A stretch of DNA of 10,014 nucleotides from a virus, in the UHGV virus genome UHGV-0084903; one strand, given 5' to 3'. Within the stretch, counting starts at the first letter, position 1, and each line of letters begins with the position of its first letter. Shown one piece after another: positions 2,435 through 10,014 of the stretch. Position numbers and translations under genes: made by a program. The notes under the pieces were generated by a model. The model was given only the letters and a program-made list of their open reading frames with translations, was not told where the DNA came from and ran no database searches.

Positions 2435-3211
2435 ATGACAACTTTCACCGACAAAGAACTGATTAAAGAAATCAAAGAGCGCATAGGCAGCCTGGACGTT
2501 CGAGACAATATTGAGCGCCGGTCGTATGAAATTGCACTGGCATCGCTGGAAGCAGAGCCAGTGGCGTCATGCATTATTGAGGATGGGTGCATGTGTGTTG
2601 ACGGGTTCGGTGAGTATGTAGGTCACTCGCTGCCTGATGGAACGCACCAGCTTTACACCGCGCCGCCAGCGCTGGTAGTGCTTGATGAAATGGATTTGCT
2701 TACCTGCCATCTCGACGGTGTAACTGAAACATATGCTGATGGCTGGAACGCCTGCCGTGCCGCCATGCTTCAGGGTAGCCAACCTGTAAGCCAAACTTAC
2801 AACTTGCCAGAATTAATCGAAGGCATGGAAGTTTCCATTGATGTAAGCACTTGTGATGCTGATTTAGGTAATCGCTATTTCGGCACCGTCACCGAGGCGT
2901 TAGAACTTGATACAGCCAAGAATGGTTACATCCTCCTGGTTCAGGACGCAGAGCCAAACTTCGATGTAAATGGCAACTCTCCGGTAACTCCGGATGGTTG
3001 GATAAGCTGTAGTGAGCGAATGCCTGAAAAGGGCCAGAACGTGCTTATTTCGGTGAATTTCGATAGCTCTCTGGTTGAACCGCTAATATGCTCCGCACGC
3101 TATACCGGAAGCACCTTTCGGCGCGGAGATGCAACGATTAAGCCGGGTAATGGTATTGAGCAAGCAACTCACTGGATGCCGCTACCGGAACCGCCGCAGG
3201 AGGTGAAGTGA
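2435..3211 (+). CDS. DUF551 domain-containing phage protein
   Basis: 258-aa ORF. The C-terminal segment WISCSERMPEKGQNVLIS...ATHWMPLPEPP matches the DUF551 signature common in enterobacterial prophage early regions. Stop overlaps the start of the next gene. Confidence 0.7.
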   Translation: MTTFTDKELIKEIKERIGSLDVRDNIERRSYEIALASLEAEPVASCIIEDGCMCVDGFGEYVGHSLPDGTHQLYTAPPALVVLDEMDLLTCHLDGVTETYADGWNACRAAMLQGSQPVSQTYNLPELIEGMEVSIDVSTCDADLGNRYFGTVTEALELDTAKNGYILLVQDAEPNFDVNGNSPVTPDGWISCSERMPEKGQNVLISVNFDSSLVEPLICSARYTGSTFRRGDATIKPGNGIEQATHWMPLPEPPQEVK

Positions 3212-3783
3212 TGAACAACTTAATGATCGACCTTGAGACGATGGGGAAAAATAAGGATGCACCGATCGTTTCCATTGGCGCGGTGTTCTTCACTCCAGAA
3301 ACCGGAGACATCGGACAAGAATTCTATACAGTTGTTAGCCTGGAAAGTGCTATGGGGCAAGGAGCTACACCTGACGGCGATACCATCCTGTGGTGGTTGA
3401 AACAAAGCCCTGAAGCACGAGCTGCAATCTGTATTGATGATACTTTGTCGATCAGCGATGCTCTCTCAGAACTAAATCATTTCATTAACCGGCACGCAGC
3501 CAATACGAAATATTTAAAAGTCTGGGGTAACGGGGCCACCTTCGACAACGTAATTTTACGTGGAGCTTATGAGCGAGCAGGACAAATCTGCCCGTGGGCA
3601 TACTGGAATGACCACGATGTACGCACGATCGTTACGCTTGGGCGTTCCATCGGATTCGACCCCAAAATGGACATGCCTTTCGATGGCGAACGGCACAACG
3701 CCCTGGCCGATGCCCGTCATCAGGCAAAATATGTTTCCGCTATCTGGCAGAAATTAATTCCTGCCACCAGCACAGAATTATGA
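3211..3783 (+). CDS. DnaQ-like DEDDh 3'-5' exonuclease
   Basis: Exo I motif IDLETMG (D-x-E), Exo II WGNGATFDNVIL, Exo III H-x4-D (HNALADARH). AGGAGG at 3198..3203 is 7 nt from ATG 3211; the GTG at 3208 is an alternative start. Confidence 0.75.
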   Translation: MNNLMIDLETMGKNKDAPIVSIGAVFFTPETGDIGQEFYTVVSLESAMGQGATPDGDTILWWLKQSPEARAAICIDDTLSISDALSELNHFINRHAANTKYLKVWGNGATFDNVILRGAYERAGQICPWAYWNDHDVRTIVTLGRSIGFDPKMDMPFDGERHNALADARHQAKYVSAIWQKLIPATSTEL

Positions 3784-3819
3784 TTTTCCCGGGTGCAGCC
3801 GGTTTTGATGGAGAAAATT

Positions 3820-4101
3820 ATGAACACCTTGTTTTTACTGATGGCTGAATTCAATACCCCTAACATTGAACTCTCAGCAGTTAGCCAAAAGTACTTTGGC
3901 ATGAGTCCAGCCACGGCAGAAGCAAAAGCAAACGCTTGTAAGTTGCCCGTTCCAACATATCGCATCGGCACATCACAAAAAGCAAAACGTTGCATCAATA
4001 TTCAGGATCTTGCGGAATACATAGACAAAAGACGAGAAGAAGGACGTATCGAGTGGGAACAGGTCAGAACAAGCAAACAGAAGGGCAAAGAACATCACTA
4101 A
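3820..4101 (+). CDS. PrtN-family (pyocin-activator-like) DNA-binding protein, excisionase-like
   Basis: MNTLFLLMAEF...YFGMSPATAEAKANACKLPVPTYRIGTSQKAKRCINIQDLAEYIDKRR resembles the PrtN/phage excisionase family. GGAG lies 7 nt upstream of ATG 3820; the in-frame upstream starts (3793 GTG, 3808 ATG) lack an SD. It occupies the xis position upstream of int. Confidence 0.65.
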   Translation: MNTLFLLMAEFNTPNIELSAVSQKYFGMSPATAEAKANACKLPVPTYRIGTSQKAKRCINIQDLAEYIDKRREEGRIEWEQVRTSKQKGKEHH

Positions 4102-5137: not shown

Positions 5138-5371
5138 GGGTTCCCAATAGGCTCCCACAAAGTGTATAACTACTTGTTTTTCAAAAACGGTACATCCTAT
5201 CGAGCATAGGAGCAATGCTAAACCGAGAATTCCAGTAAACACCAGTTTTTTCAGGCATCACGCTGGTTTGATTAATTTTTTGTGTTTCATGATTATCGTG
5301 CATTTTTGAACATTTCAGGCTATTTTTCTCGCGTTAGGTTCCCGCACAGGTTCCCACGTTTTATGGGAACC
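5138..5371. repeat. Cluster of GGTTCCC(A) motifs in the int upstream region, including an inverted pair
   Basis: GGTTCCC at 5139..5145, 5337..5343 and 5349..5355; inverted copy GGGAACC at 5365..5371. The last two form an 8-bp inverted repeat GGTTCCCA-N7-TGGGAACC ending 20 nt before the int ATG. A separate 6-bp IR TCCTAT-N5-ATAGGA lies at 5195..5211. Confidence 0.5.
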
Positions 5372-5391
5372 CGAAATAACGAGGTCGTGTA

Positions 5392-6489
5392 ATGGCGTAC
5401 TATAACATAGAGAAACGACTAAAATCCGATGGCACACCACGCTATCGCTGTAATGTGATTATCAAAGAAAAAGGTGTTATCACTTACAGGGAAAGCAAAA
5501 CATTCCCTAAACATGCTCATGCCAAAACATGGGGAACACAGAAAGTGATGGAATTAGATCTATATGGCATTCCATCATCAAATGCAGTTGACGGACTTAC
5601 AGTCCGTGACTTACTACACAAATATTTAAATGACCCAAATGCCGGAGGTAAAGCAGGCCGTACTAAAAGATATGTGCTGGAACTGCTTATGGATAGTGAC
5701 ATCTCCGCGATCAAACTATCTGAACTGACAGAAAATGACGTAATTGAACATTGCAGGCTAAGAAACAACGCTGGTGCAGGTCCAGCAACAGTCAGCCACG
5801 ATGTTAGTTATCTTGGCAGTGTTCTGGATGCGGCCAAACCTGTATACGGAATTAATTACACATCAAACCCGGCGAAAAGCGCTCGCCCATATCTACTTAA
5901 ACTTGGTTTGATTGGTAAATCAAACCGTCGTAATCGTAGACCAGCATCTGATGAACTGGACATGCTCATTGAAGGCCTTCAACAACGATCTACTCATAAA
6001 TGCTCAAAAATTCCGTTCGTTGATATCCTCAAATTTTCTGTGTGGTCCTGTATGCGGATCGGAGAAGTATGCCGGTTACGATGGGAAGATCTCGACCAGG
6101 AACAAAAATCTATACTCGTAAGAGACAGGAAAGATCCACGCAAAAAGGAAGGCAACCACATGAAAGTAGCCTTGCTTGGGGAAGCCTGGGATATCGTCCA
6201 ACGACAGCCCAAAAAATCGGAATTCATTTTTCCATATAACAGCACTTCTGTTACTGCAGGATTTCAGAGGGTAAGAAGCAAATTAGGTATTAAAGATCTG
6301 CGATACCATGATTTGCGTAGAGAAGGGGCAAGTCGCTTATTTGAGGCTGGTTTTAGTATTGAGGAAGTCGCTCAGGTTACAGGGCATCGTTCATTAAACG
6401 TGCTATGGCAGGTATATACCGAACTGTATCCGAAATCTTTACATAATCGTTTTGAAGAGCTCCAAAGGAGCAGAAATAAGACCTCTTGA
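5392..6489 (+). CDS. int: Tyrosine site-specific recombinase (phage integrase)
   Basis: 365-aa ORF; GAGG 7 nt upstream of the ATG. Catalytic-domain signature: Arg in CMRIGEVCRLRWEDL, H-x-x-R in HDLRREGAS, His in TGHRS and a downstream Tyr (VLWQVYTELY). Confidence 0.85.
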   Translation: MAYYNIEKRLKSDGTPRYRCNVIIKEKGVITYRESKTFPKHAHAKTWGTQKVMELDLYGIPSSNAVDGLTVRDLLHKYLNDPNAGGKAGRTKRYVLELLMDSDISAIKLSELTENDVIEHCRLRNNAGAGPATVSHDVSYLGSVLDAAKPVYGINYTSNPAKSARPYLLKLGLIGKSNRRNRRPASDELDMLIEGLQQRSTHKCSKIPFVDILKFSVWSCMRIGEVCRLRWEDLDQEQKSILVRDRKDPRKKEGNHMKVALLGEAWDIVQRQPKKSEFIFPYNSTSVTAGFQRVRSKLGIKDLRYHDLRREGASRLFEAGFSIEEVAQVTGHRSLNVLWQVYTELYPKSLHNRFEELQRSRNKTS

Positions 6490-6535
6490 CACTGTTTATC
6501 CATACAGTTAAAAATAACACTGTATACAAACACAG
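6486..6535 (+). promoter_or_regulatory. Sigma70-type promoter with two LexA (SOS) boxes controlling the DinI-like gene
   Basis: -35 TTGACA (6486..6491, overlapping the int stop codon), 17-bp spacer, -10 TAAAAT (6509..6514). LexA box 1 CTGT-ttatccat-ACAG (6492..6507) fills the spacer; LexA box 2 CTGT-atacaaac-ACAG (6520..6535) covers the predicted start site. Both are perfect CTGT-N8-ACAG with AT-rich spacers. Confidence 0.8.
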
Positions 6536-6550
6536 TATAGAGGGACTTTT

Positions 6551-6799
6551 ATGCGTATTGAGATCTGCATAGCCAAAGAAAAAATGACTAAAATGCCAAA
6601 CGGTGCTGTGGATGCGTTAAAGGAAGAATTAACCCGACGCATCAGTAAACGTTATGACGATGTAGAGGTGATCGTAAAAGCCACCAGCAACGATGGCCTT
6701 TCTGTTACGCGCACCGCCGATAAAGATTCAGCTAAAACTTTTGTTCAGGAAACTCTGAAAGATACCTGGGAGTCTGCTGACGAGTGGTTTGTTCACTAA
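6551..6799 (+). CDS. dinI: DinI-like DNA-damage-inducible protein
   Basis: 82-aa ORF closely resembling E. coli DinI at both ends (MRIE.IAK..., ...[10 protein letters not shown]). GAGGG lies 6 nt upstream of the ATG. The LexA-box promoter immediately upstream supports the call. Confidence 0.85.
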
Positions 6800-6865
6800 T
6801 TAGCACGTAAAATCAGTAACGGCTGGAAATCATTCAATACTCGCACTATCGAAAGTTAACCAGCC

Positions 6866-6914
6866 AGCCGCAGTATCCTATCATGACAAGTTACTGCGGC
6901 TTTTTACTTTTTAT
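6866..6914 (+). terminator. Candidate rho-independent terminator after the DinI-like gene
   Basis: 10-bp inverted repeat AGCCGCAGTA (6866..6875) / TACTGCGGCT (6892..6901) with a 16-nt loop, followed by T-rich TTTTACTTTTT. The loop is larger than typical, hence moderate confidence. It lies between the convergent dinI and membrane-protein genes. Confidence 0.5.
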
Positions 6915-6916
6915 AT

Positions 6917-7204
6917 TTAACGGATCAACATCCAGATCAGCAGACACGCCACCACCGGCACAGCAAAATCCATCAGGCTTGCCACATCCCAAACACGCGG
7001 ATCAAAACCGCCCCACCACGGCATGTTAATCCGCTTGCCATGCCCGAACATTTCAATCCAGCGATATTCTGCCTGGGTGTGTTCACGCGCAATGAAGAAC
7101 GTACAACCAGCTATCGCCCCATAAGCCCAGTTTCCGGTAAAAAGACCAACCAGTGTCTGCGCAGCCACAGCACAAAGCGCATGAAGAAAAGGTGTTATAT
7201 CCAT
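6917..7204 (-). CDS. small integral membrane protein (95 aa, about 3 predicted TM segments), unknown function
   Basis: Strong SD AAGGAGG immediately upstream of the reverse-strand ATG (7204). Three hydrophobic stretches: FLHALCAVAAQTLVGLF, WAYGAIAGCTFFIA, ASLMDFAVPVVACLLIWMLI. Last gene of the reverse-strand tail-fibre block. Confidence 0.65.
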   Translation of the reverse strand: MDITPFLHALCAVAAQTLVGLFTGNWAYGAIAGCTFFIAREHTQAEYRWIEMFGHGKRINMPWWGGFDPRVWDVASLMDFAVPVVACLLIWMLIR

Positions 7205-7928: not shown

Positions 7929-8210
7929 TCACATCCAGCCACGAAGTTGATGCTCAACAACAACCGCGTATTCATCGAATATTGACGGTGTTTTCACATC
8001 ATTAATGATGCGCACGTTTACAAAATATCCGTCTTCCTTAACACATACCGGCTCGCCATCTTCAGTAATTTCCCCGGTTTCTTTGTACACGTTACCTATC
8101 ACATCAATGAGAACATTGTTCTGCATCACCTCGTCATCGTCATAACCAATGCTATCCATAAAGGCCGAAAAGTCGGCCTTGTCTGTGAATTTGATAATTA
8201 AGTCTCGCAT
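7929..8210 (-). CDS. hypothetical acidic protein (93 aa); possible tail-fibre assembly/accessory protein by position
   Basis: Its ATG overlaps the stop of the upstream tail-fibre gene (TAATG), indicating coupling. No recognisable motif; role inferred only from position between fibre genes. Confidence 0.5.
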   Translation of the reverse strand: MRDLIIKFTDKADFSAFMDSIGYDDDEVMQNNVLIDVIGNVYKETGEITEDGEPVCVKEDGYFVNVRIINDVKTPSIFDEYAVVVEHQLRGWM

Positions 8211-10014
8211 TATATTACCTCTCCCATTTGTGCATCGGTTAATTCTTTATGCCATATACGAAAATTACGAATGTGACCGAAAAGATGACGTAGACCGCTA
8301 TTAGTCTGTCCCCCAATCCTGAAGAAATAACCAGATTTAACACCGACATGATCCGTGGTTTTAGGAGTCCCATGCTGGGCATTGCTAACGAAATGCACAT
8401 TACCAGATTCATTTAAAACAAATCCAAGAACAGATTTTTGTTCAAATAATACTGGCGATACGGCGGCTACTGTACTACCGTTTTTATTGTGCATCGTAAC
8501 ACCAGGAAATAATGTTGAACTAATAGCAACACTTATATATTGACCCGGAGTTGTGCTCCCACCACTGGTATCAAAAATTCGTGGTGCTGCATTTGGCGTT
8601 TCGTTCCAGTTTGTATGAACTTCAGCTAGAAATGTTAAAGGTGGTGTACCGATATTGTTATTTGTTGGTATATTCACCATATCACTGGCTCTTGTGACTG
8701 GCGTTGCCTCAGTAATAATAAACGAAGAAGCGCACGAACCGCCTTCGACCTGAGGAGTTGCAACATAAATATAATCATCTGCACCAGTGCTTCCCCCTTT
8801 TGGTGGTGCATATTGCACCATCGCACCGATCATATTTTCTGTATCAAGTGCCTTAATTGTTGCCTCAAAGAAAATCCATTTGCTTGCTTCATTTTTAACA
8901 GCCCTTGCAGTAATACGACTTGCAGCGCCGCCAGTTTTATCAATCGATAAATCTGTCATATTTAAGTAAGCATCACCCAGGAATTTGTAGGTAGATCCAT
9001 CATATTCTTCAAATCGTAATCGACATCTTAAATTTGGAGTCCCACTTTGTACCCTGCATGAGATAGTTACATACTTTTCATCGCCGGTAACATCATATCC
9101 TTTGCTTCCAGATACTGTGACAATAGAAATGGCTGAGGTTTGCCCCACCATTTCTGGTTTTAATGTGAATTTTGCGTACTGGAAACCAAAATCATCTACA
9201 CCTGATGTATTTAAAATCATATTTGATGACTTGTTCCACTTTGATGGATTTGTGCTGTTTATTAACAGGTTTGTACGCTGCCCTTCAATCAGCAATCCAT
9301 ACTTTTCAAAGCGAGGTTCATCGATTGCAGCCTCTGTCAGCACACCAGATTTATTAATGTAAGTTGCTTTTGATGCGCGTTTAAACTTTACAATCTTGTC
9401 GCCAGGCATTGTTATTTCATCATCACCAATAACAATCTTTTTATATGATGGCGAAAAGCCCGTAATCATATCCAGTGAATCGTTAAACGGTATCCACACA
9501 TCAGGAAGCGGCTGTAAGACATATTTATACGGCTCTGCTGCCTGGCTTGCGTACTCCCTGGCTGCGTCTTCACTTGCTTTTGCAGCCGTCTGGCTTGCAG
9601 CTGATGCTTTCGCCGAGTTAGCAGCCGCAGTCTCGCTCGCCTTTGCGTTGGTTTCACTGGTTTTTGCAGCTTTTTGACTGTTGGCTGATGCAATGGCAGA
9701 AGCAGCCGCCGCGCTTGCAGAACCAGCTGCAGCACTCTCGCTTTGGGCTGCTGCATCCTGACTGTTTTTCGCCGCAGTTTCGCTGGTTTTGGCATTCGTT
9801 TCGCTGGTCTTCGCTGCCGTCTGGCTGGACTTTGCGTTGGTTTCGCTCGCCTTCGCAGCTTTCTGGCTGTTAGCCGCAGCAGTTGCTGATCCAGCTGCTG
9901 AAGTCGCAGAACCGGCTGCCGCGCTCTCGCTTTGGGCTGCTGCAACCTGGCTGTTTTTTGCCGCAGTTTCACTGGCTTTGGCATTCGTTTCGCTGGTTTT
10001 CGCTGCCGTCTGGC
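8210..10014 (-). CDS. stf: Side tail fibre protein (partial; N-terminal part lies beyond the window end)
   Basis: Reverse-strand frame is open from the window edge (10012) to the stop at 8210, 600 aa in-window. The ORF-track 'M' at 9499 is an internal GTG. Upstream part encodes AAKTSETNAKASETAAKNSQ-type repeats like lambda Stf; C-terminus ends ...HLFGHIRNFRIWHKELTDAQMGEVI, resembling the end of LamG/concanavalin-A-like domains. Confidence 0.85.
   Translation of the reverse strand, partial: QTAAKTSETNAKASETAAKNSQVAAAQSESAAAGSATSAAGSATAAANSQKAAKASETNAKSSQTAAKTSETNAKTSETAAKNSQDAAAQSESAAAGSASAAAASAIASANSQKAAKTSETNAKASETAAANSAKASAASQTAAKASEDAAREYASQAAEPYKYVLQPLPDVWIPFNDSLDMITGFSPSYKKIVIGDDEITMPGDKIVKFKRASKATYINKSGVLTEAAIDEPRFEKYGLLIEGQRTNLLINSTNPSKWNKSSNMILNTSGVDDFGFQYAKFTLKPEMVGQTSAISIVTVSGSKGYDVTGDEKYVTISCRVQSGTPNLRCRLRFEEYDGSTYKFLGDAYLNMTDLSIDKTGGAASRITARAVKNEASKWIFFEATIKALDTENMIGAMVQYAPPKGGSTGADDYIYVATPQVEGGSCASSFIITEATPVTRASDMVNIPTNNNIGTPPLTFLAEVHTNWNETPNAAPRIFDTSGGSTTPGQYISVAISSTLFPGVTMHNKNGSTVAAVSPVLFEQKSVLGFVLNESGNVHFVSNAQHGTPKTTDHVGVKSGYFFRIGGQTNSGLRHLFGHIRNFRIWHKELTDAQMGEVI
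9540..10014. repeat. In-frame imperfect tandem DNA repeats (period about 189 bp) within the tail fibre gene
   Basis: Near-identical blocks recur, e.g. the motif ctctcgctttgggctgctgca at about 9736 and about 9925, and cgctggt(t/c)ttcgctgccgtctggc at about 9801 and about 9990. They translate in-frame into Ala/Ser-rich fibre repeats; they are coding repeats, not a CRISPR array. Confidence 0.7.

Follow-up and report, generated by a model that had tools for sequence, protein, structure and literature searches.

A gene for a DinI-like protein is carried, together with its own promoter and terminator, by the 10,014-nucleotide (nt) stretch of viral DNA analysed in this study (UHGV virus genome UHGV-0084903; this stretch, at its full length, is referred to as the window). 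The best explanation of this element, and probably the correct one, is that it is a LexA-repressed, SOS-induced moron whose DinI-type product modulates RecA-dependent cleavage. The explanation is built on what was observed of the motifs, their conservation, the cassette boundaries, the family membership of the protein and its fold. LexA-controlled prophage homologues of dinI have already been documented, so that the cassette is a further member of this group and ordinary phage cargo; the present work adds only detail, namely the two-operator layout of the promoter, the exact cassette boundaries and the prevalence. A literature search found no explicit description of a two-box promoter on an E. 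coli lambdoid dinI cassette, which is not proof that there is none.

If the regulation and RecA binding are as we propose, a large proportion of E. coli strains carry between one and eight additional RecA modulators that are SOS-induced, and these carriers would include most lysogens of Shiga-toxin (Stx) phages. In that case, the additional copies could shift when, and at what threshold, prophages are induced, toxin is released and SOS mutagenesis takes place under antibiotics.

Two LexA-type boxes over the dinI promoter

The promoter begins with a -35 hexamer, TTGACA (6486 to 6491, plus strand), found by direct reading and by a promoter scan; the GenBank record of phage mEp460 (NC_019716.1) already annotates both the cassette promoter and the DinI gene. 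As the original prediction had stated, the hexamer overlaps the stop codon of the integrase gene int, whose TGA (6487 to 6489) falls within it. The two perfect CTGT-N8-ACAG boxes that had also been claimed are present on the plus strand, with a centre-to-centre distance of 28 base pairs (bp): operator 1 (CTGTTTATCCATACAG, 6492 to 6507; 20-mer 6490 to 6509) and operator 2 (CTGTATACAAACACAG, 6520 to 6535; 20-mer 6518 to 6537). A Shine-Dalgarno sequence, GAGGG (6540 to 6544, plus strand, read directly), is located 6 nt 5′ of the ATG codon.

The claim that these boxes cover the promoter spacer and the transcription start holds with one correction, which concerns the -10 element. The promoter scan gave AAAAAT at 6510 to 6515 (plus strand; 18-bp spacer, 10 of 12 matches) as the probable -10, while the mEp460 record marks a different one, TAAAAA, with a 17-bp spacer. 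AAAAAT is the likelier of the two because a diverged lineage (L181) reads AATAAT at this place and AAAAAT is kept elsewhere. With the -10 at 6510 to 6515, box 1 lies between the two hexamers and therefore fills the spacer, and box 2, starting 5 nt past the -10, begins at about the expected transcription start.

The motif CTGT-N8-ACAG occurs exactly twice on the two strands of the window, against an expectation of 0.12, and none of 200 shuffled sequences reached two occurrences. When all 20-mers of the window were scored against the gammaproteobacterial LexA consensus TACTGTATATATATACAGTA (as quoted in PMC8072944), those of box 1 (15 of 20 positions) and box 2 (16 of 20) were the two best. Operator strength was gauged by identity to the consensus and against the chromosomal dinI operator of E. 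coli, instead of by the heterology index; that proven operator scores 15 of 20 on the same consensus, and the phage boxes thus equal or exceed it. Other LexA-like sites around int and the phage attachment site (attP) were one-mismatch matches within coding regions only, and none was found at the int promoter.

For comparison among phages, DinI-like loci were gathered from viral contigs in searches with the protein of the window and with four diverged homologues, and the 90 nt upstream of each DinI-like gene were examined, with CTGG or CCAG arms accepted. Both boxes are retained in 41 of 47 unique phage promoters; three of the other six belong to a different, single-box class, and three are without one or both boxes. 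Lineages at 60-72% protein identity share the same layout (TTGACA, a box, about 12 nt, and a box at -31 to -33), with box spacers that differ between them. The arms of box 1 are kept around spacer variants such as TTATCCAT, TTATTTAT, TTATTCAT, TTATTTGT and ATAAATAA. Over 69 unique cassettes, the arms of box 2 were the least variable sites (nucleotide diversity 0.007 and 0.028, compared to 0.227 for the spacer between them), and the arms of box 1 showed a diversity of 0.10-0.11, with 0.14 for its spacer. The corresponding values were 0.042 and 0.243 for the second and third codon positions, and 0.064 for the -35 region versus 0.396 for the 15 nt upstream of it. Since the compared sequences are related, this pattern is a footprint to which no probability is attached. 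Kept arms around a drifting spacer are what a LexA operator would predict, and the pattern appears strong for box 2 and weaker for box 1.

The single-box class (L220, L223 and L226) carries its LexA box at -32/-33, with a TTGACT -35 further upstream. Box 1 of the diverged L203/L181 lineage has the same sequence as the operator of chromosomal E. coli dinI, CTGTATAAATAACCAG, a hint that cassette and operator were captured as one.

To the extent that sequence can show it, this is a strong promoter with a perfect TTGACA, overlaid by two conserved predicted LexA operators. The palindromes might instead be chance occurrences, integrase arm sites or sites for a phage repressor, given that they lie here at the 3′ end of int and that short palindromes are common around att regions. 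We give almost no credence to this notion, as attP is upstream of int, near 5200; the boxes accompany dinI, not int, and stand beside unrelated integrases and immunity types; and they are the best match in the window to the LexA consensus, at the low chance expectation given above. The presence of the cassette in phages with unrelated integrases and different immunity modules argues for control by a host factor and not by a phage-specific repressor.

The DinI-type protein and its possible action on RecA

The gene (6551 to 6799, plus strand) encodes a protein of 82 amino acids, and its designation as DinI-like is confirmed. It matched the Pfam DinI family PF06183 (E 1.2e-19; 70.8 bits versus a cut-off of 24.2), PHROG 189, "RecA filament binding protein DinI" (E 4.4e-31), and, in a phmmer search, the E. 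coli DinI structures 1GHH and 7YWA (E 7.9e-13, residues 1-81). An AlphaFold model (mean predicted local distance difference test score, pLDDT, 74.8) has strands at residues 2-8, 39-45 and 50-55 and helices at 9-14, 19-34 and 59-81, and the predicted structure has the DinI-type fold, a three-stranded sheet packed on two helices with a long acidic C-terminal helix. In Foldseek, the top matches were again 1GHH and 7YWA (template modelling, TM, scores 0.76 and 0.75), every other match having E > 0.02. Membership in the DinI family is well supported because Pfam, PHROG, PDB sequence and predicted fold all agree.

A cryo-electron microscopy study of the RecA-DinI complex, with contacts tested by mutation, defined a hydrophobic pocket (L13, L21, W71, W77 and F78) and an acidic patch (E24, E69 and D76) in E. 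coli DinI (PMC9926225). The aligned residues of the phage protein are M15, L23, W73, W79 and F80 for the pocket and E26, D71 and E78 for the patch; the 22 phage homologues compared all have the same residue at six of these eight positions (M15, L23, E26, W73, W79 and F80). Binding of the phage protein to RecA would be consistent with this.

The product of chromosomal E. coli dinI (b1061) belongs to the same family, with a TM score of 0.76 to the predicted fold and 39% identity over the structural alignment, and it shares the RecA-contact residues with the phage protein; its gene is likewise under LexA control. However, the chromosomal gene has one operator (CTGT-N8-CCAG) over the -10, a weaker -35 (TTGTCA) and a fixed site beside pyrC, whereas the phage copy is mobile and has a consensus -35 and two perfect-armed operators.

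Prophage-borne relatives provide the precedent for damage control. The Salmonella prophages Gifsy-1, -2 and -3 each have a homologue of dinI with a LexA box in front of it, and the Gifsy-2 DinI protein accumulates after mitomycin C treatment (Lemire, Figueroa-Bossi and Bossi 2011, PMC3121763). All three genes are SOS genes, with one box each and an induction by nalidixic acid of 4.6- to 23-fold (Merida-Floriano et al. 2021, PMC8072944), and c0943, a dinI-like prophage gene of E. coli, fell alongside sulA, umuD and recN under tightened SOS repression (PMC2817434). The Gifsy genes and the phage cassette are alike in that they are borne by enterobacterial lambdoid prophages, encode DinI-family proteins of roughly 80 amino acids and have a LexA box, near the ATG codon, that overlies a sigma-70 promoter. 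They differ in that Gifsy dinI has one box, runs in an operon into the antirepressor gene and irsA, and lies downstream of replication genes, while the cassette has two boxes and a single gene followed by a terminator, and lies between int and the tail-fibre genes.

Considering these data, we infer LexA binding, SOS induction and RecA binding, as well as the direction of the effect on induction, and propose the following course of events. In a lysogen, two LexA dimers, one on operator 1 in the spacer and the other on operator 2 at the transcription start, would hold the strong promoter shut. Upon DNA damage, RecA would become active, LexA would cleave itself, the promoter would open and the 82-residue DinI-type protein would be made. 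This protein would then bind in the groove of the RecA filament as E. coli DinI does, by means of its acidic patch and hydrophobic pocket, stabilising the filament and competing with other groove-binding proteins, for example UmuD and repressors of the CI type. The net effect would be a modulation of late RecA-dependent cleavage, most likely as a brake or timer. DinI and lambda CI engage the same elements of the RecA groove (PMC9926225), and a relative of the window phage, mEp460, has an S24-type repressor that is presumably RecA-cleavable, so that such competition could bear on the phage's own induction. Tuning of RecA-dependent repressor cleavage is thus structurally plausible because the RecA-contact residues are kept, DinI and CI share groove elements and the mEp460 relative has a repressor of this type.

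Several points weigh against this proposal: LexA binding and damage induction of the E. coli cassette are predicted from sequence together with precedent; the direction of the effect, a brake on RecA activity or a sustainer of it, is not one that sequence can decide; the footprint over box 1 is weaker than that over box 2, and a few natural variants (L090, L174 and L175) are without box 1; and non-polar deletions of dinI in Gifsy-1 and in Gifsy-3 did not significantly affect induction (PMC3121763). As the Gifsy deletions left induction unchanged, the function at the phage level may be subtle or lie elsewhere.

A rival explanation makes the cassette the leading part of an antirepressor system under LexA control, in which the DinI-like gene matters through its co-expression or fusion with a protein that triggers induction. 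In the Gifsy prophages, dinI heads an operon with an antirepressor of this kind (the dinI-gftA/gfoA-irsA operon), and in Tum of coliphage 186 a DinI part is fused to the antirepressor (PMC3121763). Tum and its split versions in Fels-2/PSP3 resemble the cassette in being phage-encoded, LexA-controlled and DinI-like in sequence. The phage protein covers only positions 71-149 of the 151-position PHROG 189 profile, which implies that this family includes longer, Tum-like members. However, the protein described here corresponds to the DinI part only and, with its 82 amino acids, has no counterpart of the N-terminal antirepressor half of Tum. Only 66 nt separate the dinI stop codon from the terminator stem, with no open reading frame (ORF) there on the plus strand; the ORFs that come next are part of the tail-fibre block and run on the opposite strand; and the S24-type CI repressor of the mEp460 relative needs no antirepressor. 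An antirepressor role is therefore very improbable. Of its two specific forms, a Gifsy-type downstream antirepressor is ruled out for want of room and of an ORF before the terminator, and a Tum-type fusion (about 146 amino acids) by the length of the protein and its match to the DinI half of PHROG 189 alone.

A further, rather unlikely idea is that phage DinI serves as a weapon or timer in competition between prophages, kept off by the two strong LexA operators until deep in the SOS response and then flooding the RecA groove. If so, it would block further cleavage of CI-type repressors and UmuD, which would fix the threshold at which its own phage is induced. Induction of other prophages in the same cell, Stx phages among them, would be suppressed, and gene dosage in polylysogens with six to eight copies would turn this into a major determinant of toxin-phage release. 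The points that fit this idea are the kept contact residues, the RecA elements shared by DinI and lambda CI, and the enrichment of the cassette in Stx phages.

A mobile cassette between int and the tail-fibre genes

In the usage of Hendrix and colleagues, a moron is an insertion in a lambdoid phage made up of promoter, gene and terminator. The region from 6486 to 6912 is a stand-alone mobile cassette of this kind, located between int and the tail-fibre genes, with a promoter and a terminator of its own and a single ORF; the encoded protein belongs to a host-type family. The view of the gene as accessory cargo, which had been put forward from its position, is borne out.

When the mEp460 type was aligned with phages 2H10 (Glaedevirus) and phi330 (Pankowvirus), the DNA was unrelated up to the base preceding TTGACA and nearly identical from TTGACA to the terminator. 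About 140 loci showed 14 distinct 12-mers as left flanks, amounting to about eight unrelated contexts, all of which join the cassette at the -35 hexamer. The left breakpoint is thus 6486 in all contexts, and the right one falls at about 6873-6905, in most cases at 6873-6875 inside the terminator stem. As in morons in general, the cassette has its own promoter and terminator and sharp breakpoints, and it is inserted between conserved modules, adjoining attP or the tail fibres. Nothing essential differs from other morons, although it is unusual for the left breakpoint to match the -35 hexamer to the base, a hexamer that provides the stop codon of the integrase in one lineage.

These boundaries bear on the claim that the promoter is embedded in the 3′ end of int. 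The overlap is real and spans 4 nt (6486 to 6489), but a long open frame (365-369 codons) ending at the TGA of the hexamer was found in the dusA-integrase context only, and a designed coupling of the two is not what the data support. Because homology across unrelated integrases begins exactly at TTGACA, the overlap between int and the promoter is a by-product of the insertion point.

The cassette is present in mEp460-like phages, Glaedevirus, Pankowvirus and Stx phages, and was found in at least 1409 of 5426 complete E. coli genomes, at up to eight places per genome. Such wide, multi-copy distribution, together with the typical moron architecture, fits cargo that mainly benefits the host. According to this notion of lysogenic conversion, extra SOS-induced DinI would damp the co-protease activity of RecA and SOS mutagenesis, improve lysogen survival under DNA-damaging stress, for instance from quinolones, and reduce the induction of co-resident prophages, the phage gaining indirectly via host fitness. 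Consistent with this, a prophage DinI-like gene is among the groups statistically associated with later quinolone-resistance mutations (PMC10575684), and a DinI-like gene has been listed as fitness cargo of Citrobacter rodentium prophages (PMC6456863). However, the quinolone study is correlative, and host benefit does not compete with the proposed modulation of RecA-dependent cleavage, since the molecular mechanism is the same and the beneficiary is another. As the principal role of the gene, we regard host benefit as improbable.

The 3′ end of the cassette and the remainder of the window

The 3′ untranslated region (UTR) of dinI (6800 to 6865, plus strand) contains a small hairpin (6821-6826 / 6860-6865) predicted by folding, and the right end of the cassette is an intrinsic terminator (6866 to 6912, plus strand) with a 10-bp stem (6866-6875 / 6892-6901), a 16-nt loop and a U-rich tail. 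Two terminator alleles, seen in the comparison of the window with mEp460 and 2H10, differ in the loop and inner stem and keep the outer stem ends, CCGCAG/CTGCGG.

Work in Klebsiella suggests that the important product might be an RNA, a DinR-type small RNA derived from the 3′ UTR. In support of this, the 3′ region folds better than shuffled sequences (z-score of the terminator fold, -3.7) and ends in a U-tailed terminator, and about 70 nt of the 3′ UTR survive alone in Qin-type prophage remnants. However, the 3′ UTR drifts at the synonymous rate (diversity 0.227 versus 0.243), which argues against any extra constraint. Rfam gave no match, either for the whole window at gathering thresholds or for 6400-7000 at E<=5. 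Pairing of the 3′ UTR with the E. coli ftsZ leader was no better than that of shuffled sequences (fractions 0.146 and 0.826), although this test, with mononucleotide shuffles and one target, is a weak one. In addition, the isolated UTR copies resemble deletion remnants at prophage ends. A DinR-like small RNA was rejected for its want of excess constraint and of ftsZ pairing above shuffles, and there is very little chance that an RNA is the product that matters.

The isolated copies of about 70 nt of the dinI 3′ UTR (window about 6806-6873; L087 2501-2569; L086 2501-2603) occur without dinI in Qin-type prophages, at their ydfJ′-ynfT end, and beside zinT in other E. coli strains. They start within 3 nt of one common position and look like cassette remnants at the ends of decayed prophages. 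At one locus (L085 7311-7391, corresponding to window positions of about 6796-6876, minus strand), RefSeq places within the dinI 3′ UTR a pseudogene annotated as a partial "capsid protein" and interrupted by a stop codon; this call probably reflects spurious similarity. The sequence of sRNA-17, a small RNA of E. coli K1 reported from an mEp460-like prophage (PMC7719688), is absent from the window. EcOnc27 and other leads to prophage small RNAs of enterohaemorrhagic E. coli proved unrelated to the dinI locus.

The window belongs to a dusA-integrating lambdoid phage of E. coli, of the mEp460/PhiR55_1 type; the Escherichia phages PhiR55_1 and mEp460 are 98% identical to it. The gene order is xis, int and dinI, followed by the tail-fibre block on the opposite strand. 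The integrase (5392 to 6489, plus strand, from the ORF list) is a tyrosine integrase of the dusA-targeting type (Pfam Phage_integrase, E 1.1e-20). In one lysogen, int and dinI of a dusA prophage are at the left end of the prophage, with int adjoining dusA. Homology between the window and dusA-integrated prophages in lysogens starts at 5200, and the first 34 residues of DusA are encoded there; attP is therefore placed upstream of int, near 5200, and is not between int and dinI. The DusA-encoding segment (5200-5303, minus strand) is a surrogate 5′ end of dusA, 33 of its 34 codons specifying the same residue as in the DusA protein of the lysogen. This segment is flanked (flanks 5139-5373) by GGTTCCC repeats (at about 5139, 5338 and 5351) and an inverted GGGAACC (at about 5366), which could be arm sites of the integrase.

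On its left side, the window has an early-left region of the ordinary lambdoid kind (155-1033, 2435-3211, 3208-3783 and 3793-4101), containing an ORF similar to phosphoadenosine phosphosulfate (PAPS) reductases (phrog_424), a DUF551 protein, an Rv2179c-like 3′-5′ exonuclease and an excisionase. At the other end, the side tail-fibre region (8210-9984, minus strand) consists of two ORFs in different frames (8210-9499 and 9466-9984), where relatives have a single long gene. This region contains near-repeats of the form CTGTTTTT(C/T)GCCGCAG at 9762 and 9951, and there are self-similar segments at 9779-9871 and 9968-10014.

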